DNA of 64,000 bases, from NCBI RefSeq assembly GCF_056746865.1, contig NZ_CM163382.1; one strand, written 5' to 3'. The position numbers and the translations under genes are program-made. Of this stretch, positions 798-38,328 are shown piece after piece (the stretch's first letter is position 1; each line of letters opens with the position of its first letter). The notes beneath the pieces are model-generated. The model was given only the letters and a program-made list of their open reading frames with translations, ran no database searches and was not told where the DNA came from.

Positions 798-2156
798 TTA
801 TGCTACGTCTTCGTACTGCGGAACCGGGTTACGGAAGCTCTTGGTGACGCAAGCCAGGTAAATCAGACCGATAGCAGCCCAGATCAGACCCAGAACCATT
901 GAGCTTTCTTCCAGGTTAACCCACAGCGCACCAACGGTCAGCGCACCACACATCGGCAGGAACAGATACTGGAAGTGATCTTTCAGCGTCTTGTTACGCT
1001 TCTCACGGATCCAGAACTGCGAGATGACCGACAGGTTAACGAAGGTGAACGCCACCAACGCACCAAAGTTGATCAGCGCCGTAGCCATTACCAGGTCGAA
1101 GTTGATTGCCAGCAGGGCAATCGCGCCAACCAGGATGATGTTCATTGCCGGAGTACGCCATTTCGGGTGAACATAACCGAAGAAGCTTTTCGGGAATACG
1201 CCGTCACGACCCATTACGTACATCAGTCGCGCAACGCCTGCGTGCGCCGCCATACCAGACGCCAGTACGGTAATGGTGGAGAAGATCAGCGCACCAACCT
1301 GGAATGCTTTACCTGCAACATACAGCATGATTTCAGGCTGTGACGCATCCGGATCTTTAAAGCGAGAGATATCCGGGAAGTACAGCTGCAGGAAGTAAGT
1401 TGCAAAGATGAAGATCATGCCGCCAATCAGCGCGGTCAGGAAAATCGCACGCGGGATCACGCGCTCTGCATCTTTGGTTTCTTCCGACAGGTTGCTGATG
1501 CCGTCAAAGCCGGTAAAGGAGAAGCACAGGATTGTCGCCCCGGTAATCATCGGGATAACATGCGCATCGCCAGACCAGAACGGACGAGTGCTCGCCAGCG
1601 TACCAGCGCCTTCACCTTCAAATACGCCATAAACAACCATGCCCAGAATCACCGCGATCAGCACTACCTGCAACACGACGATTACAGTGTTGAAGTTCGC
1701 TACGGATTTCAGACTACGCAGGTTAAAGGCGGTCATAAAGGCCACCAGCGCCACCACAAACATCCACGATGGGATGGAAGGCACCAGAGCTTCAAAATAG
1801 ATTTTCGCCAGCAGAATGTTGATCATCGGCGCGAACAGATAGTCGAGCAGAGAAGACCAACCCACCATAAAGCCGACAGTCGGGCTAATGGATTTCTGGG
1901 CGTAAGTGTATGCAGAGCCAGCAGAAGGATAGCGGCGAACCAGTTTCCCGTAGCTCAGAGCCGTAAACAGGATCGCAATCAATGCGAACGCATAGGCTGT
2001 CGGCACATGACCATCCGTGAGGCCTGAAACGATACCAAAAGTATCAAACAGCGTCATCGGCTGCATATAGGCAAGACCCATCATTACAACCGGAACTAAC
2101 GTAAGCGTTTTACGCAATTCCACGCGAGAGGTGTTTGGAGTAACGTTATGCGACAT
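798..2156 (-). CDS. plaP: Putrescine importer, APC-family amino acid/polyamine permease
   Basis: ORF-track 454 aa protein; I place the start at [16 protein letters not shown] (ATG at 2156). Multi-pass membrane protein matching PlaP/YeeF. Confidence 0.85.
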
Positions 2157-2422
2157 GGTCATTCTCCTTTACGGTGATAACCGTCGCGTAAGCAAAAAAT
2201 TGCCCCATTTTTTTGGATTCCTCAGCGACAACAACTGTCGATTTTTAGTAAATATCTATCCGGTACGAAGCCCGGCCTCTTGGTATGAATGATTGGTTTG
2301 AAGCAAAAAATAACCGACGCTGATGAAACGTCGGTTTTTAGTCATTTTTTGACAGCGGCGCATTGTGCCTAAATGGGGGGGAAATGACAAGAGAATGAGA
2401 GGCTTGTCATAATAATTTTTCT

Positions 2423-3352
2423 TTAAATGGCTGATTTTCCGTCATCAGATTTTGCATAAACACCGGCGATCGCACTATTTGCTAAAATTTCATCCCGCCA
2501 CCAGCCGCTGGCAAGCCCTGCGGTCTGTTCGTTCCAGCCAATCCAGACGGGTTCAAAGAGAGTTTGGGCGACCACTTTCTTCTCGATTAACGCGCCACTA
2601 TCGAGAAAACGTTGTGCCAGATAACGGGGTAAATAGCCGCAGCCGAGGCCGCTAATTTGCAGCTCCAGCTTGGTTTTAAAATCGAAAACGGTAATGGCTT
2701 CTTGTTCGTCGAGAAGTTGTGAGGCCGTAGAAGCGCCTGCCTGCGCAGTATCCCCCACCACAATCGCCCGATATCGCTTAATAATACGACGGTTTAACGG
2801 CTCTTCTTCCAGGGCTAACGGATGATGAGGCGCGACCGCAAAGACTTGTTCCAGATCGCCCAACCGTGAAAAACCAAACTCACTGGAAGATGGTGGCTCA
2901 TGCATCGCGCCAACAATAATATCCGCTCGCCCCTGAGTCAGGGCATCCCAGGAACCACCGAGTACGCCATTGATAAACTTCAGGCGCGTCACGCTATGAT
3001 GTTGATAAAAAGCTTCAATCAGTGGCGCAAGCAGAGAAAAAGGAAACGTGTCGTCCACGCCAATCACCAGCTCGTTTTCCCAGCCTTCATGCAGTTTGAT
3101 CGCCTGCTTTTCCAGTTCTCGCACGGTATGCAGAACTTCCCGCCCTTTCTCTAATAACATTTTTCCGGTACGGGTGAATTTAGCGCGGTGACCGCTACGA
3201 TCAAGCAATTGAATATTAAGGTCGCTTTCCAGCTTGTGAACGGTGTAACTCAGAGCGGACGGCGTCTTATAGAGTTTGGCCGACGCCGCCGCAAAACTGC
3301 CTTCTTTTTCTAAGGCATCGAGGATCATCAACACATCCAGCAGTGGTTTCAT
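2423..3352 (-). CDS. yeeY: LysR-family transcriptional regulator
   Basis: N-terminal helix-turn-helix (MKPLLDVLMILDALEKEGSFAAASAKLYKTPSALSYTVHKLE) with a LysR substrate-binding domain; start trimmed to MKPLL. Confidence 0.8.
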   Translation of the reverse strand: MKPLLDVLMILDALEKEGSFAAASAKLYKTPSALSYTVHKLESDLNIQLLDRSGHRAKFTRTGKMLLEKGREVLHTVRELEKQAIKLHEGWENELVIGVDDTFPFSLLAPLIEAFYQHHSVTRLKFINGVLGGSWDALTQGRADIIVGAMHEPPSSSEFGFSRLGDLEQVFAVAPHHPLALEEEPLNRRIIKRYRAIVVGDTAQAGASTASQLLDEQEAITVFDFKTKLELQISGLGCGYLPRYLAQRFLDSGALIEKKVVAQTLFEPVWIGWNEQTAGLASGWWRDEILANSAIAGVYAKSDDGKSAI

Positions 3353-3397
3353 ACACGCCCCCTTGCAGTGCATGCGGCGTCCTGCTGGCGTGATCGT

Positions 3398-4222
3398 TTA
3401 CTCCAGCGGCATTACCAGCGGATCGGGATACTGGTATTCAAATCCCAGTTCATTACAAATCCGACTGCCATCAATAATCTTACCTTTGCCGCTGTCCAGA
3501 CTATTTCTGAACTGCGGAGGCTCCAGCCCCAGTAAACGGGCCATCTGCGGATAGAAAACATTACGCGCAGGGTGAGCTGGCGCACATATATTATAGATGT
3601 GTCCGCCTTTAGGTGCCTGTAACAACAGAGTGATAGCGCCAATAACATCTTCTAAATGGACTAAATTAACACCATGTTCACCATCAGGCGCGGTTTTTCC
3701 GGCAAAGAAGCGTCCGGGATGACGTCCCGGTCCGACCAGCCCCGCAAGACGCAGAATATCGACCGAAGTACCGGGTAAATTGTGCAGCCAGTCTTCGAGT
3801 TCTTCTAATACTCGTCCACTGTTGGTTACCGGATTACGCGGGGTAGTTTCTTTCACCGTGCCTTGCGCGTCGCCATAGACAGATGTTGAGCTGGTAAAAA
3901 TAATGCGGGGAATACGATGGGCCAGCGCGCTATCCACTAACTCTTGTACCGCTTGTAAATAGAACTCATCGCCGGGGCCGCTACGACGTGCCGGAAGCGT
4001 AATGACCAGCGCATCGACATCCATCAGGGCATCCAGATCGTCAGAATCGCAAACTAACTCAGGCTCCATGCGAAGCAGATAGCTATCAATGCCACTCATT
4101 CGGGCCGCTTCGACACCATCTTGTGTGGTTTTACTCCCGGTGACTTGCCAGCCTCGCGCTGAAAGTGACATCGCCAGCGGCATGCCTAACCACCCTAACC
4201 CGACAATTGCGACCTTTTTCAT
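3398..4222 (-). CDS. yeeZ: NAD(P)-binding Rossmann-fold epimerase/dehydratase-like protein
   Basis: 274 aa ORF with N-terminal GxxGxxG motif (MKKVAIVGLGWLGMPLA); position between yeeY and yoeB. Confidence 0.8.
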   Translation of the reverse strand: MKKVAIVGLGWLGMPLAMSLSARGWQVTGSKTTQDGVEAARMSGIDSYLLRMEPELVCDSDDLDALMDVDALVITLPARRSGPGDEFYLQAVQELVDSALAHRIPRIIFTSSTSVYGDAQGTVKETTPRNPVTNSGRVLEELEDWLHNLPGTSVDILRLAGLVGPGRHPGRFFAGKTAPDGEHGVNLVHLEDVIGAITLLLQAPKGGHIYNICAPAHPARNVFYPQMARLLGLEPPQFRNSLDSGKGKIIDGSRICNELGFEYQYPDPLVMPLE

Positions 4223-4304
4223 CCGTTATCTCCTGATACACCTTAGATCTATAAGGCTACGCTAGCGTATCAAAACTGACAATTCATTCTATGAATGAAT
4301 CTGT

Positions 4305-4559
4305 TCAATAATGATAACGACATGCTGCAATGAGCAGTGAATCGTCGGTAACCGCGTATACCAGACGGTGCTCCTCTGTAATGCGTCGGGACCAGAAACC
4401 TGACAAATTATGTTTCAGGGGTTCTGGCTTCCCCTTACATTCAAATGGCGTTCTGCGGGTATCTTTGATAAGTTCATTGATCTTTTTAACAATTCGCTTA
4501 TCTGTTTCCTGCCAGTACAGATAATCATCCCATGATTCCTCAGACCAGATTAGTTTCAC
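4305..4559 (-). CDS. yoeB: Type II toxin YoeB (ribosome-dependent mRNA interferase)
   Basis: 84 aa ORF ([61 protein letters not shown]...); overlaps the upstream antitoxin gene by 4 nt. Confidence 0.9.
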
Positions 4560-4807
4560 TCAATAATGTCCTTTTCTGTTCCTTTGCCTGATTTCAGGCT
4601 ATCGATTGAGTCCATCAATCTCCGGGCGTTAGCGGGGGAGCGCAGTAGATAAGCCGTCTCTTCCAGCGAGTTGTATTCTTCGAGTGACATCAGAACACAA
4701 GCCTCTCCATTCTGACGAGTAATAAGGATCGGGGCATGATCTTCAACGGCTTTCATCATTGTTGCCGACAAATTCTGACGCGCTTCGCTGTAGCTAATTG
4801 TACGCAT
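4556..4807 (-). CDS. yefM: Type II antitoxin YefM
   Basis: Start placed at [31 protein letters not shown] (ATG at 4807), giving the 83 aa YefM; the track's N-terminal extension is rejected. Confidence 0.9.
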
Positions 4808-4822
4808 GTCAATCTCCTCTTT

Positions 4823-4840
4823 TGTACAGTTCATTGTACA
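4823..4840 (-). promoter_or_regulatory. yefM-yoeB operator palindrome (TGTACA-N6-TGTACA) just upstream of the yefM start
   Basis: Sequence tgtacagttcattgtaca read directly at 4823-4840, immediately 5' of yefM on the minus strand; YefM-YoeB is known to autorepress at TGTACA repeats. Confidence 0.6.
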
Positions 4841-5089
4841 ATGATGGGCGTTAATTAACTATTTATTAATTAGTTTGTAGATCAAGGTATTGTCAGTGAG
4901 ACGAAAATCCAGGCTTCGCTATTTTTGGTGCCGTCAGCTTAGAGGACAGTCCTCTTAGCCCCCTCCTTTCCCCGCTCATTCATTAAACAAATCCATTGCC
5001 ATAAAATATATAAAAAAGCCCTTGCTTTCTAACGTGAAAGTGGTTTAGGTTAAAAGACATCAGTTGAATAAAAATTCACAGAGACTTTT

Positions 5090-5140
5090 ATGACACGCGT
5101 TCAATTTAAACACCACCATCATCACCATCATCCTGACTAG
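5090..5140 (+). CDS. hisL: his operon leader peptide
   Basis: ATG ACA CGC GTT CAA TTT AAA CAC CAC CAT CAT CAC CAT CAT CCT GAC TAG = MTRVQFKHHHHHHHPD, with seven consecutive His codons. Confidence 0.95.
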   Translation: MTRVQFKHHHHHHHPD

Positions 5141-5200
5141 TCTTTCAGGCGATGTGTGCTGGAAGACATTCAGATCTTCCAGTGGTACATGAACGCATGA

Positions 5201-5238
5201 GAAAGCCCCCGGAAGATCACCTTCCGGGGGCTTTTTTA
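5201..5238 (+). terminator. his attenuator (leader Rho-independent terminator)
   Basis: GC-rich inverted repeat agcccccggaag...cttccgggggct followed by a T run (ttttttatt), between hisL and hisG. Confidence 0.85.
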
Positions 5239-5285
5239 TTGCGCGGTTGATAACGGTTCAGACAGGTTTAAAGAGGAATAAGAAA

Positions 5286-6185
5286 ATGACAGACAACACT
5301 CGTTTACGCATAGCTATGCAGAAATCCGGCCGTTTAAGTGATGACTCACGTGAATTGCTGGCGCGCTGTGGCATTAAAATCAATCTTCACACCCAGCGCC
5401 TGATCGCGATGGCAGAAAACATGCCGATTGATATTCTGCGCGTGCGTGACGACGACATTCCCGGTCTGGTAATGGACGGCGTGGTAGACCTTGGGATTAT
5501 CGGCGAAAACGTGCTGGAAGAAGAGCTGCTTAACCGCCGAGCCCAGGGTGAAGATCCGCGCTACTTTACCCTGCGTCGTCTGGATTTCGGCGGCTGCCGA
5601 CTTTCACTGGCAACGCCGGTTGATGAAGCCTGGGATGGCCCACTCTCCTTAAACGGTAAACGTATCGCCACCTCTTATCCTCACCTGCTCAAGCGTTATC
5701 TCGACCAGAAAGGCATCTCTTTTAAATCCTGCTTACTGAACGGTTCTGTTGAAGTCGCCCCGCGTGCCGGACTGGCGGATGCGATTTGCGATCTGGTTTC
5801 CACCGGTGCCACGCTGGAAGCAAACGGCCTGCGCGAAGTCGAAGTTATCTACCGCTCGAAAGCTTGCCTGATCCAACGCGATGGCGAAATGGAAGAATCC
5901 AAACAGCAACTGATCGACAAACTGCTGACCCGTATTCAGGGCGTGATCCAGGCGCGCGAATCAAAATACATCATGATGCACGCACCGACCGAACGTCTGG
6001 ATGAAGTCATCGCCCTGCTGCCAGGTGCCGAACGCCCAACCATTCTGCCGCTGGCGGGTGACCAACAACGCGTAGCGATGCACATGGTCAGTAGCGAAAC
6101 CCTGTTCTGGGAAACGATGGAAAAACTGAAAGCGCTGGGTGCCAGTTCAATCCTGGTCCTGCCGATTGAGAAGATGATGGAGTGA
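5286..6185 (+). CDS. hisG: ATP phosphoribosyltransferase
   Basis: Start trimmed to [20 protein letters not shown] (ATG at 5286), 299 aa; first structural gene after the attenuator. Confidence 0.95.
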
Positions 6186-6190
6186 TCGCC

Positions 6191-8561
<2,371 letters not shown>

Positions 8562-9629: not shown

Positions 9630-11707
<2,078 letters not shown>

Positions 11708-11714
<7 letters not shown>

Positions 11715-12319
11715 CAGAACAACAACGTCGCGAACTGGACTGGGAAAAAACCGACGGACTTATGCCGGTGATTGTGCAACACGCGGTATCTGGCGAAGTG
11801 TTAATGCTGGGCTATATGAACCCGGAAGCCTTAGACAAAACCATCGAAAGCGGCAAAGTCACCTTCTTCTCGCGCACTAAACAGCGACTATGGACCAAAG
11901 GCGAAACGTCGGGCAATTTCCTCAACGTAGTAAATATTGCGCCGGACTGCGACAACGACACGCTACTGGTACTGGCGAATCCTATCGGACCAACCTGCCA
12001 CAAAGGCACCAGCAGCTGCTTCGGCGACACCGCTCACCAATGGCTGTTCCTGTATCAACTGGAACAACTGCTCGCCGAACGCAAATCTGCCGACCCGGAA
12101 ACCTCCTATACCGCCAAACTGTATGCCAGCGGCACCAAACGCATTGCGCAGAAAGTGGGCGAAGAAGGCGTAGAAACCGCACTGGCAGCGACGGTACATG
12201 ACCGCTTTGAGCTGACCAACGAGGCATCTGACTTGATGTATCACCTGCTGGTGTTGTTGCAGGATCAGGATCTGGATTTAACAACGGTGATTGAGAACCT
12301 GCGTAAACGTCATCAGTGA
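11708..12319 (+). CDS. hisI: Bifunctional phosphoribosyl-AMP cyclohydrolase / phosphoribosyl-ATP pyrophosphatase
   Basis: 203 aa ORF ([25 protein letters not shown]...); last gene of the operon. Confidence 0.95.
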
Positions 12320-12329
12320 GTTGCGGGGT

Positions 12330-12403
12330 AAGCGGATGCGATGTTGTCGTCGCATCCGGCAAAAAAAACGGGCAAGGTGTCACCACCCTGCCCATTTTCT
12401 TTA
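12330..12403. terminator. Terminator region between convergent hisI and wzzB, with two hairpins and flanking A/T runs
   Basis: Inverted repeats ggatgcgatg...gtcgcatcc and gggcaaggtg...caccctgccc, flanked by aaaaaaaa on one side and ttttctttaaaa on the other; could terminate both convergent transcripts. Confidence 0.6.
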
Positions 12404-12415
12404 AAACCGAAAAGA

Positions 12416-13396
12416 TTACTTCGCGTTGTAATTACGCAGAGCATTACGCCCCAACACAATCCCCGCGCCAACCATGCCGCCCAGCAGCACCGCCAGAATC
12501 AAGGTGATTGCCTTTTTCGGACTATCGCGACGAATAGGTAACGTCGGTTTCATCACATAACGGTAAGCATGAATATCAAGATCATCAACTTTTAAGCTTT
12601 CGATATCCAGCAGGTTTTGACGTGTCTGATAGTAGTTTGGTGAGAACACCAACGGACGGGTCGCCTCGTGCTTAATCATCGACTCCAGCGCTTCGCTCCC
12701 CAAAAGGAACAACGTATCTTGCGTGATATCTTCGCCAGTCTGTTGAATTTGCGGTTTTGTCACCTGCGCCTGATTCGCATACTGCAACACTTCCTGAATC
12801 TGACGGATACGCAGATCTTTCTGCTCTTGCGCGACTACTTCCTGAGTTCTTAAAGAGTCCCGCAAGTTTTTCCGTCCCAGAGCAATGTTGTCTTTTAGAT
12901 CCTTTTCTAGCTCTTGATTCACTTTATCATCAACTTGCTGAATGTATTGGGCCAACTTCATTTGTGCGCCCTCTGCTGTTTGCCCAACATAAGAAACAGT
13001 CAATGGTAATTGCTGGTTCTTAACAGAAGGTTCGATGGTAAGTTTTTCTGGTTCTTCCTGATTATCCAGCGTTTCTGCTAATGCAGAGAAGGCAGAACTG
13101 AAGCGACCAATTAACGTCTCCTGTAAATCCGATACTTTCGGCGCAGCCTGACCATAGATAACATTCATGGCATTGTTATAGCCAGCAATTTGCCCCACGT
13201 CGGGCTGAGTGATAATTGCTGTTGACGTCCATTTCTCCTTCGCTACTGCCAAATAACCAATAGCCAGGGCAATAGCCACAATGACGGAAATGATGATTGT
13301 CATCTTGCCACGCCACAACTGCACTAGTAAATCAATCAAATCAATCTGTTCCGGGTCATGGTTTTGCCCAGAAACATTATTATTTTCTACTCTCAT
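12416..13396 (-). CDS. wzzB: O-antigen chain-length determinant (polysaccharide co-polymerase, PCP-1)
   Basis: Start trimmed to MRVENNNVSGQNHDPEQIDLIDLL (ATG at 13396), 326 aa; two transmembrane segments flanking a large coiled periplasmic domain. Confidence 0.9.
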   Translation of the reverse strand: MRVENNNVSGQNHDPEQIDLIDLLVQLWRGKMTIIISVIVAIALAIGYLAVAKEKWTSTAIITQPDVGQIAGYNNAMNVIYGQAAPKVSDLQETLIGRFSSAFSALAETLDNQEEPEKLTIEPSVKNQQLPLTVSYVGQTAEGAQMKLAQYIQQVDDKVNQELEKDLKDNIALGRKNLRDSLRTQEVVAQEQKDLRIRQIQEVLQYANQAQVTKPQIQQTGEDITQDTLFLLGSEALESMIKHEATRPLVFSPNYYQTRQNLLDIESLKVDDLDIHAYRYVMKPTLPIRRDSPKKAITLILAVLLGGMVGAGIVLGRNALRNYNAK

Positions 13397-14956: not shown

Positions 14957-16363
14957 TTAATCCAGCCATTCAGTATGGAACACACCTTCTTTATCAATGC
15001 GCTTATAAGTATGCGCACCGAAATAGTCACGCTGTGCCTGGATCAGGTTCGCAGGCAGAACAGCGGCACGGTAGCTATCGTAATAGGCAACCGCAGCGGC
15101 GAAGGTCGGAACCGGGATACCGTTCTGTACTGCATATGCGACGACATCACGCAGCGCCTGCTGGTAGTCATCGGCAATTTGCTTGAAGTACGGAGCCAGC
15201 AGCAGGTTAGCGATCTGCGGATTTTCGGCATAAGCATCGGTGATTTTCTGCAGGAACTGCGCACGGATGATGCAGCCAGCACGGAAAATCTTCGCGATTT
15301 CGCCGTAGTTCAGAGCCCAGTTGTATTCTTCAGACGCAGCACGCAGCTGAGAGAAGCCCTGAGCGTAAGAAACGATTTTGCCAAGATACAGCGCACGGCG
15401 AACTTTTTCGATGAACTCAGCCTTGTCGCCTGCTGGCTGTCCTTGCGGGCCAGAGAGAACTTTAGATGCGGCAACACGCTGATCTTTCAGAGAAGAGATA
15501 TAACGTGCAAACACAGACTCGGTAATCAGCGACAGCGGTTCGCCGAGATCTAGCGCACTCTGGCTGGTCCATTTGCCTGTACCTTTGTTTGCTGCTTCAT
15601 CCAAAATCACATCAACCAGGTAGTTACCGTCTTCATCTTTTTTGGTGAAGATATCTTTGGTGATGTCGATCAGGTAGCTGCTTAGTTCACCGTTATTCCA
15701 CTCGGTAAAGGTCTGAGCCAGTTCTTCGTTGGTGAGGCTCAGGCCACCTTTAAGCAGTGAATAGGCTTCAGCAATCAGCTGCATATCGCCGTATTCAATA
15801 CCGTTATGAACCATCTTCACATAGTGACCAGCACCATCGGCACCAATATAGGTAACGCATGGCTCGCCGTCTTCAGCAACGGCGGCGATTTTGGTCAGGA
15901 TCGGCGCAACCAGTTCATAGGCTTCTTTCTGCCCACCAGGCATAATGGAAGGGCCTTTCAGCGCACCTTCTTCACCACCGGAAACACCGGTACCAATGAA
16001 GTTAAAGCCTTCGGCAGAAAGCTCGCGGTTACGACGAATGGTGTCCTGGAAGAAGGTATTACCACCATCAATGATGATGTCACCTTTATCGAGGTATGGC
16101 TTGAGGGAATCAATAGCAGCATCCGTGCCTGCACCTGCTTTCACCATTAACAGGATGCGACGAGGCGTTTCCAGAGATTCAACAAACTCTTTCACCGTAT
16201 AGTAAGGAACCAGTTTCTTGCCTGGATTTTCGGCAATCACTTCTTCCGTCTTTTCACGGGAACGGTTGAAAATAGAGACGGTATAACCACGGCTTTCGAT
16301 GTTGAGCGCAAGGTTGCGTCCCATCACTGCCATACCGACGACGCCGATCTGTTGCTTTGACAT
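14957..16363 (-). CDS. gnd: 6-phosphogluconate dehydrogenase (decarboxylating)
   Basis: 468 aa ORF ([30 protein letters not shown]...). Confidence 0.95.
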
Positions 16364-16474
16364 TGTTTACTCCTGTCAGGGGTGGTCACCGCGGGGTTGC
16401 GCGGCTTGAAGAAGCTAAGATGGTAACCCAGCATGTATAGAATAAGATAGAAGAATAAACGGTGGTATATCGCT

Positions 16475-16882
16475 TTATAACCACTTAGAAAAAGCCTTAG
16501 CTTTCAGTGGGTCAAATGGCCCCTCCTTTATCTCCAACATAAGGGCTTTTGGTGACAAGCATTTGACACTATGTATATCTCCTGGGGAAAATTCCACGAC
16601 GCTTATTCCCGTACCGTCTCCAACCACAAACTGTTTTTGGATCTCACCATTTTGCTCATACAAGCAAACTTCTAATTGCCCTTGCATGACGACAAACATT
16701 TCCCACTGATGCGGTAACTCATGCCAATGGGGTTCAACATAGCTGTCGCGGACAAATGCAATAAGTAAACGTTGAACCTTCTCCTGATGAGATGCGTGCA
16801 ATAAATAATGAGCGCGCAAACGTTCAGAATTTGCTGCAGTGCGAAAAAGTTCATCCAGAATATTGTCATCAACTAAACGCAT
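16475..16882 (-). CDS. wbuC: Small cupin-like protein of the type found at the end of fnl-containing O-antigen clusters (WbuC-like)
   Basis: 135 aa ORF immediately downstream of a WbuB-like glycosyltransferase with a 10-nt overlap; assignment is by size, position and resemblance, not a verified function. Confidence 0.6.
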   Translation of the reverse strand: MRLVDDNILDELFRTAANSERLRAHYLLHASHQEKVQRLLIAFVRDSYVEPHWHELPHQWEMFVVMQGQLEVCLYEQNGEIQKQFVVGDGTGISVVEFSPGDIHSVKCLSPKALMLEIKEGPFDPLKAKAFSKWL

Positions 16883-18081
16883 TCTCCTGCCTCCAGTCGG
16901 ACTTCGATAATATGTGCCGCCGATTCAACCGAAAATTGAGACTTTAACAACACATTAGCGTTCTGACCTAACTGCTTTCTTAAAGCTGAATCACTAAGAA
17001 GCAATTGTGCAGATTTAAACAGTTTATCATCTTCACCATTAACATGAATGAAACCGGCCCTGTGCTTATTAATTACATCCATTAAATCATTGCCGCCATT
17101 CACACTCCCAAGGATCGGGATTGATTGAACCATATACCCTAGTAATTTCCCAGGGAAATTATGTGAAGAATGGCGAGATGAAAGGGAGAACAGGCCGACA
17201 TCAACTTCAGATAAAATTAATTTAAACTCTTCCTGGTTCACTGAAGGTAGGTGAGTGAAATTAGTTAAATTCCATTCTGCAGCAAGAGATTTTATCAGGT
17301 CAACTTCATCACCCTGCCCTATAAACAGGAAATGAGCATCATGATAACGCATCATATTACGCGCAAGGCGCATTAAGTTCGCCATATCCTGAGCATGCCC
17401 AATATTACCGCCATAGAAAAAAATGACTTTATCTTTTAGATCGTATTTTTGACGAAGTGAATGATAATCATCGCTGGCAGACACAGGAGTCATTGAGGCC
17501 CAATTACGTAAAACTTCACACGGATAACCTTTATTGGTCTGACGAAATATCTCAAGATTCTTATCAGACATTACCCCTATCCGGTCAGCCTGCTGATATG
17601 ATTTTTTTTCAAAATACCTGAAATATTTTTCAATTGGCGAACCGGCTTTCAACATACCTGCATCAATGACCCACTGTGGAAACATATCCCTTAGGACCAG
17701 GTAGCTTGGGCACTGGCATCGCTGCTTTATTTTTTTAACCAAGTCGCCCCAAAAAATAGAGGGGGAATAATAAACGATACCATCAAATGTATCATGTTGA
17801 ATGAGGTGCTTAAATGCGCGCCATGCACGAAAAGATAAAAGAGTTTCATTTATGGCACGCTTAGCCTTACCTACATCCTTTAAAGGTCCACTTTTGAAAC
17901 GCCAAACCTTTATACCATCAATCATACTAACAGAATAGATTGCTTGTAATGTGATGTCAGGCGTAATTACAGTTACATCATGGCCTCTGCTCAACAATTC
18001 AAGGCCTAACTCATGAAACATTTTAGCCCCAACACGTGTGCTATGGGGCAAATAATCATCAATGATTAATGCAAGTTTCAT
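16873..18081 (-). CDS. wbuB: GT4-family glycosyltransferase, probable L-FucNAc transferase (WbuB-like)
   Basis: 402 aa ORF directly downstream of fnlABC; in known clusters this position holds the transferase that uses the UDP-L-FucNAc made by FnlABC. Confidence 0.7.
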   Translation of the reverse strand: MKLALIIDDYLPHSTRVGAKMFHELGLELLSRGHDVTVITPDITLQAIYSVSMIDGIKVWRFKSGPLKDVGKAKRAINETLLSFRAWRAFKHLIQHDTFDGIVYYSPSIFWGDLVKKIKQRCQCPSYLVLRDMFPQWVIDAGMLKAGSPIEKYFRYFEKKSYQQADRIGVMSDKNLEIFRQTNKGYPCEVLRNWASMTPVSASDDYHSLRQKYDLKDKVIFFYGGNIGHAQDMANLMRLARNMMRYHDAHFLFIGQGDEVDLIKSLAAEWNLTNFTHLPSVNQEEFKLILSEVDVGLFSLSSRHSSHNFPGKLLGYMVQSIPILGSVNGGNDLMDVINKHRAGFIHVNGEDDKLFKSAQLLLSDSALRKQLGQNANVLLKSQFSVESAAHIIEVRLEAGECV

Positions 18082-19211
18082 TAGTATTGTTTCCAGACAA
18101 CCCGTTTAACGTAGTCAGTATATGAATGGATAATACGCACAACTTTATCTGAAACATTGGGCATGCTATAGTCACTGACCTGACGAAGTAAGCGTACTTC
18201 TCCACGAGGCTGTGTTGCAATAATTTCTAATGCCTGTAAAACGCGCTCAGATTCAAGACCGACCATCATTACTGCCCCTTCTTCGAAGCCTTCCGGGCGT
18301 TCGTGCGCTTCTCGTATATTGAGTGCAGGGAAGTTCATAATGGAGGACTCTTCTGTAATAGTCCCACTATCCGATAAAACAGCACGTGCATTTTTTTGCA
18401 GATGGTTGTAATCGTGAAATCCTAATGGCTTAAGAAGCAAGATATTTTTATGGAATTGAATACCGTTTTCATTGATGCGGTTACGAGTGCGAGGATGAGT
18501 AGAAACAACTACCGGGACATCATATTTTTCAGCCACGGTATTAAGTATATTCGCCAGTTTCGCAAGCTGTTTAGGGGTATCAACATTTTCTTCTCTGTGG
18601 GCACTTACCACAAAGAAATTCCCAGGTGTTAAATTCAGGCGAGAAAGTACATCGGAACCATCAATCTGCGGCATATAATGAGTGAGTACTTCAAACATTG
18701 GGCTACCGGTTTTAATAATTCTATCGGCTGGTACACCTTCAGCCAGAAGATATTCACGAGCGATATCGCTATATGTCATATTGATATCAGCAGTGTGGTC
18801 AACTATTTTTCTGTTAGTTTCTTCCGGTACGCGTTGGTCAAAACAACGATTCCCCGCTTCCATATGGAAGATCGGAATTTTTCGACGCTTTGCTGGTATT
18901 GCTGAAATACAGGAGTTAGTATCGCCAAGAACTAACATAGCTTCTGGTTTTTCCTGTTCAAGGACATCATCAACTTTAATGATAACTTGTCCAATAGTCT
19001 CTGCTGCATTTTTACCTGCGGCATTAAGAAAATAATCTGGTTTGCGAACACCCAAATCTTTGAAAAAAACTTCATTCAATTCATAATCGTAGTTTTGGCC
19101 AGTATGAATAATAAGGTGGTCACAATATTCATCTAATTTTGCAAGGACACGCGAGAGTCGAATAATTTCTGGACGAGTCCCAACAACCGACATGACTTTC
19201 AATTTTTTCAC
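18081..19211 (-). CDS. fnlC: UDP-N-acetylglucosamine 2-epimerase (non-hydrolysing), FnlC/Cap5G-like
   Basis: 376 aa ORF ([29 protein letters not shown]...) of the WecB/Cap5G epimerase type; third gene of the UDP-L-FucNAc pathway. Confidence 0.85.
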
Positions 19212-20314
19212 GATAAAACTCTCGCTATAGTATCTGGTTCAGAACGATTAAATATTTCATTTGCCCAAAGCATAACAACTAGCTCATCCGAGCCATTATT
19301 AGTGATGTCATGCGTCCACCCCGGAACTGTTTCAACAATTTTAAAATCATCTGAGGAGACATTAAATTCATATCGCTCACCCGTGACAATATTTTCAAAT
19401 TTGAAACAAGCACTTCCTCGGATGACAATAAATTTCTCATTTTTGGAATGATGATAATGTCCCCCCCGAGTAATTCCTGGATGCGCAGTAAAGAACGAAA
19501 ACTGGCCCGCGTTTTTCGTTTTCAATACTTCACAGAATACCCCTCTATCATCACTATAAGAAGGAACCGTATACGCAAACTGTTCAGGAGACAGATAACT
19601 TAACCATGTTGAGTACAATGCACGTGTAAATCCATTACCTACATCTTCGGTGATTAATGTTTGGCGACTTTCTTTAAATCGGTAAATTAATTGCGCCACT
19701 TCACCAACAGTAACAGAATAAATTGGACCGAATGTCCTGTAACCAGTTTCGTTCGCTCCTTCCAATAGCTTTAATATGTCAGAACAAAAGTCATCTATAT
19801 ACACCAGATCAACAACTGCTGAAGGATCATTAATTGTAATAGTTTCATCATTTGCAATGCGATGGCAGAAAGTTGCTATAAAGGAGTTATAATTTGGGCG
19901 ACACCACTTACCGAATACATTCGGCAAGCGATAAATATAATATTTGGCATTTGTCGTTTCCCCATACTGCTGAATGATTTTCTCCGCAGTCGCTTTACTC
20001 TTTCCATAAGCGTTATCACATTCAGCCTGGATGGAAGAACTCAGCATGATAGGAGTATTTTTATTATTTTTTTTCAGAACATCAACAATCTGTTGAGTTA
20101 CGTTGCTATTTCCCTCTTCAAATTCACTCTCCTTCACAGGACGATTTACTCCTGCAAGGTGAAAAATGAAATCTGCCTGCTTAAGTCCCTGCTCTAAATC
20201 CGCCAAAGAAGAGTTACGATCTATCGTAATAAGTTCGTTATAACCAGCCTCCTTAAGGCGGAAAACCAAATTACGGCCGATAAACCCTGAAGCACCAGTA
20301 ACTAAAATTTTCAT
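19208..20314 (-). CDS. fnlB: UDP-L-FucNAc pathway reductase/epimerase, FnlB/Cap5F-like
   Basis: ORF with short-chain dehydrogenase N-terminus ([17 protein letters not shown]); start placed at the ATG at 20314, but 20332 or 20341 are also possible. Confidence 0.8.
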
Positions 20315-20315
20315 A

Positions 20316-21350
20316 TTATGAATCCAACTCATAATCTTCACCAGAACGAATTGCCCGGATAAAAGGAAGTTTTAGCAGTAATTTTTTCATACCCTCAACA
20401 TCTAATCTCTCAGTATTATGAGAGTTATAATCTTCCACTTCCGAGATACGACGGTCACCATGTTCCACATATTTACCATAGTTCAAATCGCGGAGATCTG
20501 GTGGAACACGATAATAATCACCCATATCTTCCGCTGCTATCATTTCCTCTCGGCTCAATAACGCTTCGTAAAGTTTTTCCCCGTGTCGAGTTCCAATAAT
20601 ATTGATTGGATGTTCATGGGCATTTAGCAATTCCTTAAGTGCAATGGCTAATGTTTGAATTGTTGCCGCAGGAGCTTTCTGAACGAAAATATCACCGTTA
20701 TTTCCATGCTCGAAGGCATAAAGGACCAGATCAACAGCATCCTCAAGCGTCATCATGAAACGAGTCATATTGGGATCGGTAATGGTCAATGGTTTACCAG
20801 ATTTGATTAGATCAACAAACAATGGGATGACCGATCCACGTGAAGCCATTACATTCCCATAACGTGTTCCGCAGATAACTGTTTTTGAACTATCAAGATT
20901 ACGTGATTTTGCAACAATGACTTTTTCCATCATTGCTTTAGATATGCCCATTGCATTAATAGGATATACGGCTTTATCTGTACTCAGACATACAATTCGC
21001 CTAACGCGATTAGCTATTGCAGCTTCTAGAACGTTTTCAGTACCTAAAATATTCGTTTTTACAGCTTCCATGGGGTGGAATTCGCAGGAAGGCACTTGCT
21101 TCAGGGCTGCAGCATGATAAATAAAATCAACACCTCGAGAAGCATTGAGAATACTCGAATAATCGCGAACATCACCTATATAGAACTTAAGCTTCTGATT
21201 ATTATATTTTTTCCTCATGTCATCTTGTTTTTTTTCATCCCGGGAAAAAATACGTATTTCTTTGATATCTGTATCAAGAAAACGTCTTAGAACAGCATTA
21301 CCGAAAGACCCCGTACCACCAGTAATTAACAATATTTTACCATTAAACAT
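20316..21350 (-). CDS. fnlA: UDP-GlcNAc 4,6-dehydratase/5-epimerase, FnlA/Cap5E-like
   Basis: Start trimmed to MFNGKILLITGGTGSFGNAVLRRFLD (ATG at 21350), 344 aa. Confidence 0.85.
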   Translation of the reverse strand: MFNGKILLITGGTGSFGNAVLRRFLDTDIKEIRIFSRDEKKQDDMRKKYNNQKLKFYIGDVRDYSSILNASRGVDFIYHAAALKQVPSCEFHPMEAVKTNILGTENVLEAAIANRVRRIVCLSTDKAVYPINAMGISKAMMEKVIVAKSRNLDSSKTVICGTRYGNVMASRGSVIPLFVDLIKSGKPLTITDPNMTRFMMTLEDAVDLVLYAFEHGNNGDIFVQKAPAATIQTLAIALKELLNAHEHPINIIGTRHGEKLYEALLSREEMIAAEDMGDYYRVPPDLRDLNYGKYVEHGDRRISEVEDYNSHNTERLDVEGMKKLLLKLPFIRAIRSGEDYELDS

Positions 21351-21358
21351 AATACACC

Positions 21359-22462
21359 TTATTTTAAAATAGAGAAGAACTGTGGCCAAGATGAACGACT
21401 ATCTTTTTCATAAGGCCTAAAATTGAGCTTCGAATTGCCATTTAAAACATTAAACAACGCCCTAGCCCAGCCATCTTCATCATTGTAAATTACAAAATCT
21501 ACGCCGCTATAATTCTTTAAAACATCACGGGCATAAGGAAGATCACTACTAATGATTTTTTTTCCTAAACTAGCAGCTTCGATGAGTGGTAACCCATATG
21601 ATTCTATATAGCTAGGAAAAACAATAAAAGATGCCGCCATATATTTTTTTTGCAATTTCGAGTATGAAAGAACACCGAGATAATCAATGTTTTTGCTTAG
21701 GTTATTTAATTGCACAAACTTATCAAAATTTTTGTACCTATTCTTTTCAAAAGTCACTTGGAATTTCAGATCATCTATAAAATACTTTTGCTTTAAAATA
21801 ACCAACGCCTTCAGAATGACCAAATGATTTTTATAGGTAAGTGGTGTCGCTGGATATAAGAGTGTTTTAACAGATACATCCTTATCTACATCAAATTTAG
21901 TATTATTAAATGTTTTGATATCAGGTTTTATAACAAGGACCCTTTCGGAACTAATCTTATCACATTGATCCAACACTCCTTTTTTCATCCAATTCGTTTG
22001 CACTACGATGGTTGTATTTGCATTCACATATTTAAATATAAAATAGGAATAAAAATTTTTATATAAAAAAAGTTTTACGTTATCGAACGTGATATCATTT
22101 AAAAAAGAATCAACTTTACTGAAAGGAATTGGCTGGTGCAAGTAAATAATCTGCTCATAAGGAACATTCAAACTGGAATTTTGTAGAGAAATTACTTTCT
22201 TAACGTTAATCTTATGTTCAGAGATAAACTTTCGACAACCGAACCAATCCCAATATATTCTTTTCAACCATCCTTTTGGTGTGTTTTCTATGTAAATGAT
22301 GTTATCACAGACCGGCAACTCTAATCCCGCAGATACAAACATAATATAGTCATTTGAATTTTGTGATGCATGTTTTATAAATTGCTTTAATATAGTTAAT
22401 GCACCTCCGGAGGCCAGCGCCGTCGCACTTACAACAATATAACTTTTGGACAAATCAAACAT
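21359..22462 (-). CDS. GT4-family glycosyltransferase of the O-antigen cluster
   Basis: 367 aa ORF with the C-terminal GT4 motif (FPSYIESYGLPLIEAASLGKKII); AT-rich codon usage like its neighbours. Confidence 0.7.
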   Translation of the reverse strand: MFDLSKSYIVVSATALASGGALTILKQFIKHASQNSNDYIMFVSAGLELPVCDNIIYIENTPKGWLKRIYWDWFGCRKFISEHKINVKKVISLQNSSLNVPYEQIIYLHQPIPFSKVDSFLNDITFDNVKLFLYKNFYSYFIFKYVNANTTIVVQTNWMKKGVLDQCDKISSERVLVIKPDIKTFNNTKFDVDKDVSVKTLLYPATPLTYKNHLVILKALVILKQKYFIDDLKFQVTFEKNRYKNFDKFVQLNNLSKNIDYLGVLSYSKLQKKYMAASFIVFPSYIESYGLPLIEAASLGKKIISSDLPYARDVLKNYSGVDFVIYNDEDGWARALFNVLNGNSKLNFRPYEKDSRSSWPQFFSILK

Positions 22463-22738
22463 ACAGTTCCTAAGTGGTTATCTAAAGCTTCTTATTAACA
22501 TAAATTTTCAACAAATGAAAACAGACAGAGCAAAGTACACTTCCATAGGAAGTTATCCGAATGAATGCAGGATATTATATACTACATAAGAAGCCATATC
22601 CTATCTTTCCCAAATCGAAACATTTTCTGTTCTTGCCCTCTTATTTCCAGACAGGGATTGTATCTTAAGTTAGATATATGTCCAAGCCTACCTCTTATTT
22701 TAAGATACATCTACTGTCTGGTGTTTTCGGGGGTCAAC

Positions 22739-23229
22739 TCAGATCACATTATTAAGAATCTCACCACACACAACACTATTTGCGCCAATAACTACACCAT
22801 TACCTATACACGCACCTGGTAATATTGTCACGTTTTCACCAATCCACACACGCTCTTCAATATACACAGGTGCAGATTCAAGAGACCTAGATGAAGGAAT
22901 AATAGTTGGTGAACTATGGATATCAGATTTAGAAAAAATACCATGATTATGATCACTAATAAATACTTTACTTGCTATTAATGTATCTCTACCAATAATG
23001 GCATTATTAATAGCCGCGATGTGGAACATAATCATTAATTTGAACATTTTCTCCAATAGACACTATAGCATCCATAAATGTATCACCTCCTAATACTACA
23101 CCTGATGTAAACCCTTTTCCAAAACTAACACTTCCATCTTTTCTAAGATAACATGAAAATCTAATAACCCTAACATTTGAACAAAATAAAACTTTTGTTA
23201 AGAATAATCTTTAAGAAGCCTAAGACCAC
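22739..23229 (-). pseudogene. Degraded hexapeptide-repeat acetyltransferase gene
   Basis: The only intact ORF (22739..23056) encodes hexapeptide-repeat sequence (HIAAINNAIIGRDTLIASKVFISDHNHG...IGENVTILPGACIGNGVVIGANSVV). The N-terminal part (...GKGFTSGVVLGGDTFMDAIVSIGENVQINDYV) lies upstream in a different frame, consistent with a 1-nt insertion near 23005, and has no in-frame start codon. Confidence 0.65.
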
Positions 23230-23332
23230 CATAAAGGCCATATCGTTTAATTAACTTAATTTTTTATGCACATTATTTATGCCCTGGTTAGAATATATGT
23301 TATTTACGTATTAATGATAACATAATCTACTA

Positions 23333-24562
23333 TTATATAGCCATTTTGACATTAGATTTCATCAAGATAATTTTAGCATGATATTTGCATAAAAATATTG
23401 ATGAAAATAACATAAACACATAGGGATTTATATAGCCAGCACCACGTATAAAAAGGGGGATGAAGAAACACATATAGAAACTATATGCTAAAATATACTG
23501 CGGTGGATATCTCTTATTTTTTTTGAAACGCAGATAAAATCGAAAAAAAATAAAAAGATAGAAAATGCACATTATTGCACCAATAAACCCAAACTCAGAT
23601 ATTAACTTCGAAGAAATAAATGAGCCATCGTATATATTTAACATAGGGGCATCAAGATCAGCTAAAATTTGTTGATACACTCCTACCTCCCCATTCACGC
23701 CCATTTGTTGAAAACCAATACCAAGACCATAACTTGTAATAAAATTCAAGAAAGCTCTTTCAATTCCTGAAAGATATACAAGCACTGATAAGTTCGTAGT
23801 ATTTTTAAAATCAAGCCGCGATGTATAGTAAGAAATGTCTAAATCACTTAATATCATGGAAAAAATCCATGCCCCTAAAAATATAACAATAGTTTGCCTT
23901 ATTGTTATTTTTTTCATCACAAAAACACTAATCACAATGCCTACTAACATCGTTAAGTTCTGGATACCTAACGCAATACCCAAAGATAATATATAGAGCA
24001 ATAGTACCCCCCCCCCCCTTGTATAGTATAAACAAAATGAAAAGATAGGTATGAAAACCAATGCAAATGCTGATGGTTCAGGAAAAAGAATCATACTTTT
24101 ATCATGTATAATCTCAGTTTTCTGTAAAAGAATACTTATAATGCCAATAAGGCAAAGAAATGCGAACAAATAAAAGACGGATCTCTTAAGTATTTCTTCA
24201 GAACATAACCACAAAGTCTGTGCATAACAAGAGGAGACGTATGCCATTATTAAGATGCTATACATTGAAAGTACAATTTTAAATGATAAAACCTGTTCAA
24301 TATTAAATAGCATACTTAACAGACAGTTAAAACACAACAATATGAATAATACTACTATTATTAGCAAATTATCTTTGCAAGTGTTTTTAGCCCTTAAAAA
24401 AACAAAAAGCAATATAATGGAGATTATCGTTGAAATGCTAAAATTATCAATCCCTAATGTATAAAACAAAAAATCAGGAAAAACAAGGAAAAGTAAAAAT
24501 AAAAATATAATTCTTTTTGTGCTATTTGGTTCTTCTATTCTTATGCTCATACATAATCTCAA
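23333..24562 (-). CDS. wzy: O-antigen polymerase
   Basis: 409 aa highly hydrophobic, AT-rich ORF with many predicted transmembrane segments, between glycosyltransferase genes; contains a G12 tract on the coding strand. Start uncertain (24562 or 24550). Confidence 0.7.
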   Translation of the reverse strand: MRLCMSIRIEEPNSTKRIIFLFLLFLVFPDFLFYTLGIDNFSISTIISIILLFVFLRAKNTCKDNLLIIVVLFILLCFNCLLSMLFNIEQVLSFKIVLSMYSILIMAYVSSCYAQTLWLCSEEILKRSVFYLFAFLCLIGIISILLQKTEIIHDKSMILFPEPSAFALVFIPIFSFCLYYTRGGGVLLLYILSLGIALGIQNLTMLVGIVISVFVMKKITIRQTIVIFLGAWIFSMILSDLDISYYTSRLDFKNTTNLSVLVYLSGIERAFLNFITSYGLGIGFQQMGVNGEVGVYQQILADLDAPMLNIYDGSFISSKLISEFGFIGAIMCIFYLFIFFRFYLRFKKNKRYPPQYILAYSFYMCFFIPLFIRGAGYINPYVFMLFSSIFLCKYHAKIILMKSNVKMAI

Positions 24563-25670
24563 TTATCTTTTTTGCCCAATTGTCCCAATGCAATATTTTA
24601 TTATATCTAACTCTTGCGTTTTGGGAGTAGTTTTGATAAGTCTCTACGGAGCTAATTATTTTATGAATTGCATTTCCAAAGTGCTTATAGTCTGACGAGT
24701 CTTTAATTAATATCCCCGTCCTTTCGTTGATAACTATAGAACTAATTCCACCTGTATCTGTGGCGACAACTGGCAATCCATAAGCTGCAGCTTCACAAAA
24801 TACCATTCCGTAACATTCAGCAATGGTTGGTAAAAGAAGTATATCAGCGTTAGATAACACATCGATGAATTTCTGATATTCTTCAACGTTATTTTTATTT
24901 ATTTTATCAATTAATTCAACCCAAGCAGGTAAAATCTCTTGATTCGGAGTACATCCACAAATTTTTAGTCTAACATCGATCCCATATAACTCTCTTACAT
25001 ATTCAATTGCTTTCAATGCTGTTTTACCACCTTTTCTTTCCCAATCGACCCCCAAGAAAAGACAAGTATAACTAATCTTTTGAATTATAGTTTTATTAGC
25101 AAAATGAATATCTTCAAATAAATTAGCCCCCCATGGTATTTCAACTAATTTATCAGAATCCAATCTGTAATAGTCCTTGCAAAAATCCATTGCCCATTTA
25201 GATGGGAAAGATACGACTGTTGCTTTTTCAATAGCCTTGCGTTCGATTAAACTTGCATCCTCATCATTTATAATTGTTTTTTTATTTAAATTCGGATAAT
25301 AGTTTTTTAATTGATCATATGTTGTATCCGATAGATATATTATTGGTATATTTGTTTCTAAAAAAGCAATTTGTGAAGAACCTGCAGGTGCAATAATAAA
25401 ATCCAAACCATCAATTTTTTTTAATTTTCTCTCAAATATTCTACCGTAATACTTGGAAAGCAACTTCGAACGACTATAATCATATTCCTTTCCGAAACAC
25501 CTTAATATTAATTTATATGCTTTTAACATGTATACCATATAGCTATTTACCGGTCCTAATATTTCAATGGAAATATTTCTCTTCGATAATGCCTTTAGCA
25601 TATAATAAGGTGTGCCAGACCAACTGGATGTAGATAGTGGATCATAAGCAGATAAAAAAGCCACTTTCAT
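24522..25670 (-). CDS. GT4-family glycosyltransferase of the O-antigen cluster
   Basis: 382 aa ORF with GT4 motif (LPTIAECYGMVFCEAAAYGLPVVATDTGGISSIV). Confidence 0.7.
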   Translation of the reverse strand: MKVAFLSAYDPLSTSSWSGTPYYMLKALSKRNISIEILGPVNSYMVYMLKAYKLILRCFGKEYDYSRSKLLSKYYGRIFERKLKKIDGLDFIIAPAGSSQIAFLETNIPIIYLSDTTYDQLKNYYPNLNKKTIINDEDASLIERKAIEKATVVSFPSKWAMDFCKDYYRLDSDKLVEIPWGANLFEDIHFANKTIIQKISYTCLFLGVDWERKGGKTALKAIEYVRELYGIDVRLKICGCTPNQEILPAWVELIDKINKNNVEEYQKFIDVLSNADILLLPTIAECYGMVFCEAAAYGLPVVATDTGGISSIVINERTGILIKDSSDYKHFGNAIHKIISSVETYQNYSQNARVRYNKILHWDNWAKKIIEIMYEHKNRRTK

Positions 25671-25736
25671 TAAATACCCTTTAATAACATATCAAACTAT
25701 ACATTTATTTAATAACACCATCATTAAATGCATATT

Positions 25737-28511: not shown

Positions 28512-28513
28512 TT

Positions 28514-29392: not shown

Positions 29393-29449
29393 TTCATCAT
29401 TCCTTTTAATTCATCTTGCTCCATCATCACGAACAAGATGCAAAAACTA

Positions 29450-31434: not shown

Positions 31435-31508
31435 TTATTTATTCCATATAACTTCAGAGCATGCTGTGAAATAAGCGGCTCTTAGGTTGATTAATAGAGG
31501 TGTTAATG

Positions 31509-31548
31509 CACGCTACCGCCCCTGGCTTTACAGCTACCAGAGCACTAC
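31509..31548 (-). promoter_or_regulatory. JUMPstart element with ops site upstream of the O-antigen cluster
   Basis: Plus strand reads cacgctaccgcccctggctttacagctaccagagcactac; its reverse complement contains GGCGGTAGCGTG, the ops motif, oriented with the minus-strand rmlB operon. Confidence 0.85.
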
Positions 31549-34268: not shown

Positions 34269-34278
34269 GCGTTCTCCT

Positions 34279-38327: not shown

Positions 38328-38328
38328 A

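Follow-up and report, generated by a model that had tools for sequence, protein, structure and literature searches.

The chromosomal yefM-yoeB toxin-antitoxin operon in a 64-kb stretch of Escherichia coli DNA and its YoeB G41C allele

Gene arrangement

The DNA analysed here, called the window below, is a stretch of 64,000 nucleotides from contig NZ_CM163382.1 (assembly GCF_056746865.1). It carries two small genes, yefM and yoeB, which are both read from the minus strand; the initial annotation of the locus had named no strand. The antitoxin gene yefM (4556..4807) begins with an ATG at 4807, ends with a TGA at 4556-4558 and encodes 83 amino acids. According to the ORF reading the toxin gene yoeB (4305..4559) begins with a GTG at 4559, ends with a TGA at 4305-4307 and encodes 84 amino acids. 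An antitoxin-toxin pair with a 4-nt overlap had been described for this region, and both reading frames are indeed found on the minus strand, where the yoeB start codon and the yefM stop codon share the four nucleotides GTGA (4556-4559), the same as in K-12. This overlap suggests that the translation of the two genes is coupled.

The layout is that of a type II toxin-antitoxin operon, i.e. two small co-oriented genes, antitoxin first, that overlap each other and are preceded by a single mapped promoter. In the window the serial order of the genes is yeeZ, yoeB, yefM, followed by the divergent his operon, which is the same as the K-12 order yeeY, yeeZ, yoeB, yefM, hisL-hisG-hisD.

Promoter and operator

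The minus strand of the promoter region reads ...TAGTTAATTAACGCCCATCATTGTACAATGAACTGTACAAAAGAGGAGATTGACATG. Going upstream from the yefM start codon, the ribosome binding site GAGGAG (4814..4819, minus strand) is located 6 nt before the ATG, which fits the 6-bp window given in PMC1802561. Next comes the short palindrome S, TGTACA (4823..4828), that surrounds the transcription start and is known from DNase I footprinting and mutagenesis (PMC1802561) and from the placement of +1 (PMC7730913). The +1 of the promoter pyy is predicted to be the G at 4827 (minus strand), inside S, on the basis of the primer extension data of PMC1802561 and of PMC7730913. The long palindrome L, TCATTGTACAATGA (4831..4844, core TGTACA at 4835-4840), is the primary YefM site and an exact match to the one in PMC1802561. 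The -10 box TACAAT (4833..4838, minus strand; PMC7730913) lies wholly inside L, and a linker of 17 bp separates it from the -35 box TAGTTA (4856..4861, minus strand), for which PMC7730913 gives TaGttA with the same 17-bp linker.

According to Kedzierska et al. (2007), the operator consists of paired palindromes with a TGTACA core that are 12 bp apart, centre to centre, and lie at most 80 bp from the yefM ATG. Here the centres of S and L are 12 bp apart, L lies over the -10 box and S over +1. The TGTACA-N6-TGTACA operator that had been placed immediately upstream of yefM is thus present, in the form of TGTACAGTTCATTGTACA at 4823-4840, 15 nt upstream of the ATG. It had also been called intact, and this holds to the letter: both palindromes are base-for-base identical to the footprinted K-12 operator, and in a base-by-base alignment with K-12 no substitution falls in either palindrome or in a promoter hexamer. 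We note that the motif by itself is only modestly improbable and not overwhelming evidence. It has a single match in the 64-kb window even if one mismatch is allowed, where 0.09 matches are expected by chance, and at least one match occurred in 9 of 100 shuffled windows. What makes it significant is where it lies, 15 nt ahead of the start codon, together with its identity to the footprinted operator.

One nucleotide of the promoter linker differs from K-12, i.e. position 4847, 3 bp outside L, where the minus strand has C here and T in K-12. Since the 78-bp stretch 4808-4885 occurs exactly (100%) in 1416 genomes, this is a common natural allele. The -35 box TAGTTA is weak, which accounts for the low basal strength of the promoter. 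A generic sigma-70 consensus scan missed pyy because the -35 box agrees with the consensus at 3 of 6 bases only; the one match of the scan, on the plus strand at 4465-4493, was below chance expectation.

A longer yefM reading frame of 92 amino acids, starting with an ATG at 4834, was considered and rejected. It corresponds to the '-7' codon that was ruled out by experiment (PMC1802561): if the ATG at 4807 is numbered +21, +1 corresponds to 4827 and -7 to exactly 4834. The rejected codon precedes the mapped transcription start and is located within the L repeat and the -10 box.

The span first given for the module, 4305-4840, has the final base of the yoeB stop codon at one end and the outer end of the core hexamer of L at the other. 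The complete unit is larger, with the full L palindrome reaching 4844 and the -35 box 4861; in other words, it continues for about 20 bp past the right-hand end of that span.

Flanking sequences and opposite strand

Directly 3' of the stop codon of yoeB, the repeat search detected an 8-bp A/T-rich inverted repeat, ATTCATTC-N3-GAATGAAT (4282..4300), which on the minus strand is followed by TGTCAGTTTTGAT, a short run of T. The predicted fold of 4240-4310 (minus strand) has an energy of -16.1 kcal/mol (z = -2.26), modestly better than that of shuffled sequences. All but the last base of the repeat lie in the conserved flank and are present in genomes without the module as well. A scan for intrinsic terminators after yoeB found no canonical terminator and left this hairpin unflagged. 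We consider it a weak, terminator-like structure. As the hairpin is weak and fails the terminator scan, transcripts may possibly read through from yoeB into yeeZ.

The Rfam scan of 4100-5400 returned the His leader (5116-5239) only, with no RNA family in the module or in the yefM-hisL spacer. Three antisense open reading frames on the plus strand (4330-4524, 4410-4535 and 4736-4858) are short and without supporting evidence, and were taken to be mechanical.

Identity of the proteins

The proposed names were to be checked by alignment to reference YefM and YoeB proteins, a failure of which would have spoken against them; both proteins match. YefM is identical at 83 of 83 positions to chain A of PDB 2A6Q, the crystallised K-12 protein (E = 1.8e-49), and YoeB at 83 of 84 positions to chain E of the same entry (E = 1.9e-55). 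The family models agree with the alignments. YefM reaches 186.6 bits with the NCBIfam equivalog NF008499 (cut-off 121; positions 1-83 of 83), and 96.8 bits, far above the gathering score, with Pfam PF02604 (PhdYeFM_antitox). For YoeB the scores are 130.7 bits with the NCBIfam equivalog TIGR02116 (Txe/YoeB; cut-off 51.8) and 142.2 bits with Pfam PF06769 (YoeB_toxin; cut-off 27; profile positions 1-80 of 80). The translation of yoeB contains all catalytic and substrate-contact residues listed in PMC3814384, i.e. E46, R59, E63, R65, H83 and Y84, as well as the HNLS specificity helix (50-53; PMC7256200).

The pair had also been called complete. This is correct as regards length and the catalytic residues; the toxin, however, departs from the reference protein by a G41C replacement at a glycine that is 94% conserved.

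The same DNA is annotated as yefM/yoeB in RefSeq in 4211 complete E. coli genomes. The view that the reading frames and the palindromes have arisen by chance in an intergenic region, without a functional gene pair, could draw on the modest improbability of the TGTACA-N6-TGTACA motif alone (9 of 100 window shuffles, one mismatch allowed), but it is refuted by the identity to crystallised proteins at E-values of 1e-49 to 1e-55, the curated equivalog models matched by both proteins, the conservation across 4211 genomes and the experimental characterisation of an identical sequence. We are highly confident that the locus is the chromosomal yefM-yoeB type II toxin-antitoxin operon of E. coli, on the minus strand and pointing away from the his operon. 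In the strict sense it belongs to the YefM-YoeB system, and nothing argues against this identification. The module is an ordinary one and already known; it counts among the chromosomal type II toxin-antitoxin systems that have been characterised best.

Comparison with K-12 and with other toxin-antitoxin systems

The K-12 module (yefM b2017/yoeB b4539; PDB 2A6Q, 2A6R, 2A6S, 4V8X and 6OXA) occupies the same position between yeeZ and hisL. YefM, the L and S palindromes, the -10 and -35 boxes, the length of their linker, +1, the ribosome binding site, the GTGA overlap and the catalytic residues are all the same. Over 868 bp the two sequences differ by 8 substitutions. Three are synonymous (4527, 4565 and 4577), one is that in the promoter linker (4847), and three more are in the yefM-hisL intergenic region (4933, 4940 and 5073). 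The lone non-synonymous change is the one that causes YoeB G41C (4439).

The Axe-Txe system of the Enterococcus faecium plasmid pRUM has a homologous Phd/YefM-type antitoxin and a YoeB/Txe-type toxin, and it shares the L and S operator repeats with their TGTACA core and 12-bp spacing (PMC7730913). It differs in the way the repeats are set on the promoter: its L lies in the linker between -35 and -10 and its S covers the -10 box only in part. Moreover, its promoter is strong (-35 TTGCTT) and is repressed incompletely, and a second promoter, pat2, is located upstream (PMC7730913). By comparison, the window has the geometry of K-12 pyy, with L over the -10 box and S over +1, an arrangement that results in steric exclusion of RNA polymerase.

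RelE-superfamily mRNA interferases such as RelE, YafQ and HigB have the same microbial-RNase RelE fold and likewise cleave mRNA in the A site. The respective profiles are weakly similar to the YoeB of the window and score below their cut-offs (TIGR02385, 23.2 bits; TIGR00053, 22.6 bits). Unlike RelE-type toxins, YoeB uses a canonical pair of Glu and His for acid-base catalysis and is weakly active independently of the ribosome as well (PMC3814384), and YefM, unlike RelB, has the Phd/YefM fold instead of a ribbon-helix-helix.

A second toxin-antitoxin module had been reported near asmA, and we find there a Gp49/HigB-like toxin gene (57817-58155) followed by a gene for an HTH_37 protein (58145-58435). 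This module is also of type II, lies in the same window, and its toxin is annotated as a member of the RelE/ParE superfamily. It differs from yefM-yoeB in that the toxin gene comes first, the toxin belongs to PF05973, the antitoxin is of the HTH_37 type and there is no TGTACA operator.

Proposed mode of action

In K-12, the yefM-yoeB mRNA's 5' end has been mapped by primer extension (Kedzierska et al., PMC1802561). YefM dimers occupy L first and then S, YoeB strengthens the repression as a corepressor, and the footprint of the repressor spans the -10 box, which excludes RNA polymerase (PMC1802561). Because L is placed over the -10 box and S over +1, pyy is almost fully repressed (PMC7730913). 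Operator binding and repression of transcription by YefM and by YefM2-YoeB have both been shown in K-12 (PMC1802561, PMC7730913), where YefM and the palindromes are identical to those in the window.

The operon described here would work along the same lines. The weak sigma-70 promoter pyy (-35 TAGTTA, -10 TACAAT, +1 G at 4827) is predicted to drive a bicistronic mRNA, from which yefM would be translated starting at ATG 4807 and yoeB starting at the GTG that overlaps the yefM stop codon. YefM, as the primary autorepressor, would bind as a dimer to the L palindrome over the -10 box and subsequently to S over +1. With YoeB as the corepressor in the YefM2-YoeB complex, access of RNA polymerase would be blocked, i.e. 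the operon would repress itself, and YoeB would be directly neutralised by YefM.

For the toxin, the ribosome-dependent cleavage of mRNA in the A site and the arrest of growth upon overexpression have been shown with wild-type YoeB (PMC3814384, PMC6821326). The free YoeB dimer binds to the ribosomal A site and cuts the A-site codon of the mRNA behind its second nucleotide (PMC3814384, PMC6821326), Glu46 acting as the general base and His83 as the general acid (PMC3814384). Arg65 and Tyr84 stabilise the transition state. Activation of YoeB is described in PMC4554461 as dependent on the Lon protease and as taking place at elevated temperature. According to this scheme, degradation of YefM by Lon, e.g. 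at high temperature, may release a YoeB dimer in the present strain that would enter the ribosomal A site and cleave the mRNA after the second nucleotide of the codon, with Glu46 and His83 as the predicted general base and general acid and with Arg65 and Tyr84 presumably stabilising the transition state. We infer that in the present strain the operon is both expressed and active.

Distribution among E. coli genomes

The initial annotation had referred to a well-described core type II system. Well-described it is, but it is not core: the full locus is present in only 4211 of 5426 complete E. coli genomes (78%). The promoter region was found in 4216 of the 5426, and about 1200 match the left flank only, i.e. 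the first 70 bases of the query.

An alignment with O157:H7 strain ATCC 43890 delimits a presence/absence segment of 652 bp (4300..4951) that comprises the entire module together with its promoter and a further 90 bp upstream. The flanks are shared up to 4299 and again from 4952, and about 210 bp of unrelated DNA lie between them in ATCC 43890, whose yeeZ-hisL spacer is 425 bp long and has no annotated gene. The replacement DNA includes what we take, by resemblance to the REP consensus, to be REP-type palindromic units, e.g. TGCCGGATGCGGCGTGAATGCCTTATCTGGTCTACA on the complementary strand. The left junction of the 652-bp segment is 5 bp past the yoeB stop codon, and the right junction is inside an imperfect palindrome (4937-4959).

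As a separate observation, strain MRY15-131 was the lone 100% match over 671 bp. It is identical to the window at 1944-6703, with flanks at about 97.7% and a different O-antigen cluster.

The G41C allele of YoeB

Codon 41 of yoeB (4437..4439, minus strand) is TGT (Cys) in the window and GGT (Gly) in K-12. The underlying SNP is at 4439, where the plus strand has A here and C in K-12. Its frequency was determined with a 31-mer centred on the SNP, in which every seed of 28 bases necessarily covers the variant position. The variant 31-mer is present in 21 of 5426 complete genomes and the wild-type 31-mer in 2366; about 1800 further genomes with the locus have other differences within the 31-mer.

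Nine carriers were sampled, and every one of them codes for WP_023141665.1. Their sequences match that of the window without a difference from 1924 or earlier to about 5198, and it is only towards the his operon that they depart from it; in three of them (EC0885, FG31-1 and wlxctx60) the identity extends over all of 1924-6954. The same protein is found on at least 1000 contigs in a collection of 15 billion proteins, and RefSeq and UniProt records exist. A single-base difference from K-12 could in principle be a sequencing or assembly error that hides a wild-type toxin, but this explanation is refuted, with next to no probability left to it, by the occurrence of the same SNP in 21 complete genomes that are independent of each other and differ in host and country, the common haplotype of the nine carriers and the contigs and database records just mentioned.

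Genome FDN-11 shares the haplotype of the carriers over 3171-5072 and is wild type at 4439. The pattern points to a single mutational origin of G41C and subsequent recombination nearby. We also considered whether G41C is a recurrent, possibly selected mutation. This was rejected, given that 9 of 9 sampled carriers are on one haplotype and that this haplotype also occurs, in FDN-11, with the wild-type base.

G41C is the commonest non-reference YoeB allele encountered in the analysis. Among 15 listed members of a cluster of 828, the natural alleles (W5S, N28I/D33Y, D33G, T37K, P45S, G54D and D72V) are scattered along the protein, and in this sample a clustering of natural variants in the alpha2-beta2 loop is unsupported.

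Likely effect of the replacement

Residue 41 is part of the alpha2-beta2 loop that docks on the decoding centre, 16S h18 and S12 (PMC3814384, PMC6821326), and is located five positions ahead of the general base Glu46. In the loop motif G-x-G-K-P-E (41-46), G43, K44, P45 and E46 are present and position 41 is Cys. The variability of this position was assessed in representatives of the YoeB family at 50% clustering. Here Gly41 is found in 139 of 148 aligned representatives (94%), compared to 142 of 150 for Glu46 and 142 of 149 for Arg65. Cys is the commonest alternative to Gly. It occurs in four representatives, three of which (P0060, P0111 and P0123) are independent, full-length lineages of about 50% identity that keep Glu46, Arg65, His83 and Tyr84. 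The penalty of G41C in the Pfam profile is 4.1 bits (from 146.3 to 142.2). Cys41 is thus, as far as sequence comparison goes, off the consensus yet within the natural variation of the family. Our literature search for Gly41 of YoeB found no publication or residue-41 experiment, and PMC7256200 covers residues 50-53 only.

These data leave two ways of reading the allele. One is that the module is a decaying copy with an attenuated toxin, where G41C perturbs the docking loop so that YoeB binds poorly to the ribosome or has a less stable fold. It would be in keeping with this that Gly41, in a set of 148 diverse representatives, is conserved on a par with the catalytic residues, and that each of the neighbouring residues 39, 40, 42, 43 and 44 makes contact with the ribosome. 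As seen in the 70S-YoeB structures (PMC3814384, PMC6821326), Phe39 contacts H69 of the 23S rRNA (A1913), Glu40 contacts Thr44 of S12, Lys42 contacts C519 and Leu52 of S12, the backbone N of Gly43 contacts the phosphate of C519, and Lys44 contacts Pro48 of S12 and inserts between G530 and A1492. The toxicity of YoeB can also be shifted by small changes, as is known from four-residue swaps in the helix at 50-53 (PMC7256200). Finally, the allele arose once, sits on one haplotype and occurs in 21 of 5426 complete genomes, as would fit a change that is neutral or mildly deleterious and hitch-hikes in one lineage. On the other hand, Cys is the most frequent substitute for Gly and is found in three independent, otherwise intact lineages, and the reading frame, the catalytic residues and the operator of the module are all intact. 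The nine carriers examined contain no second lesion and encode one protein, and the allele is as widespread as the contig count given above implies. We therefore regard the decay of the module as rather unlikely, and to the same low degree that autorepression by YefM is the main function left to it. Similarly improbable, in our view, is that G41C makes YoeB an attenuated or only conditionally active toxin, be it by weaker A-site binding, by lower thermal stability or by a redox-sensitive thiol.

The other reading, which we prefer, is that the G41C allele is functional, or at least tolerated, and we consider this quite probable. We note that the persistence of the allele does not in itself imply toxin activity, because the loss of a toxin from a chromosomal toxin-antitoxin module is not counter-selected.

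Implications

With respect to the species, yefM-yoeB is a 652-bp presence/absence polymorphism, found in 78% of the complete genomes, and not a core gene pair. If the attenuated reading of G41C were true, a whole sub-lineage of E. coli would have altered toxicity and normal autoregulation. If G41C does alter toxicity, it would be a handy natural variant for studying the part of the loop in ribosome docking, which makes it a subject of modest, specialist interest.

Presence/absence polymorphism of the yefM-yoeB segment

Among complete E. coli genomes, the entire yefM-yoeB module is a presence/absence polymorphism that corresponds to positions 4300-4951 of the window. In about 22% of these genomes, O157:H7 for example, the corresponding place in the yeeZ-hisL spacer is occupied by unrelated DNA of about 210 bp, which we take to be REP-like. 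In the yeeZ-hisL region of O157:H7 (L002), the replacement sequence runs from 2571 to 2780.

The right junction of the segment falls within a palindrome at 4937-4959, GCTTAGAGGAC-N1-GTCCTCTTAGC, the 11-bp arms of which are 91% complementary in the window. K-12 differs from the window around this palindrome at 4933 and 4940 and, as the sequence reads, the K-12 version would have a perfect core with 10-bp arms. Two additional SNPs lie inside the palindrome in SWYH.B349aT (4938 and 4943). Folded as RNA, the palindrome was not more stable than shuffled sequences (z = -0.29).

A third operator-like hexamer

A degenerate operator-like hexamer, CGTACA, which matches at 5 of 6 bases, was found at 4799-4804, i.e. 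in codons 2-3 of yefM, and is unchanged in K-12. Its centre lies 24 bp from that of the S repeat (TGTACA, 4823-4828), and because this distance is twice 12 bp, the hexamer is in helical phase with the L and S repeats. The chance of a match of at least 5 of 6 bases at a single fixed position is about 0.5%. We found no mention of this hexamer in the passages of the operator literature that were consulted.

Variability of YoeB

The E. coli YoeB cluster (P0151/P0152) has 828 members, and allele counts were taken from the 15 members listed. Among these 15, G41C, the allele of the window, is by far the commonest non-reference allele (at least 1000 contigs), followed by T37K (450 contigs) and P45S (60), the remaining alleles occurring in at most 32 contigs each. 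The variant positions in the 15 listed members of the 828 are dispersed along the protein.

Mosaic structure of the window

Compared with MRY15-131 (NZ_AP017620.1), which is its best local match, the window (1-64000) is a recombination mosaic. Identity between the two is 100% over 1944-6703, falls to about 97.7% in the flanks of this stretch and is 95% over 28135-41216; nothing in 16393-28135 aligns to MRY15-131. In the window, the reading frame of the TerC family gene yegH (56093-57742, plus strand) is unbroken, but its MRY15-131 counterpart (11269-12851 of region L004) is annotated as frameshifted, i.e. as a pseudogene.

The interval between yegH and asmA holds a second type II toxin-antitoxin module (57817-58435, plus strand). 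The toxin gene comes first and encodes a Gp49/HigB-like protein of 112 aa (PF05973, 105.8 bits); the antitoxin gene overlaps it and encodes a 96-aa protein with an HTH_37 domain (78.1 bits). Neither protein reached the cut-off of the NCBIfam models searched. In RefSeq, the homologous pair of MRY15-131 is labelled as a RelE/ParE-family toxin and an HTH protein.

The O-antigen cluster (15500-29000) belongs to the O25 family, its wzx being annotated as 'O25 family O-antigen flippase', and is 100% identical to that of several genomes, ABU 83972 and an O25:H1 strain among them. The matches listed include 25 O25 genomes, and none of these is one of the 21 G41C carriers; therefore, O-antigen type and YoeB allele have been reassorted.
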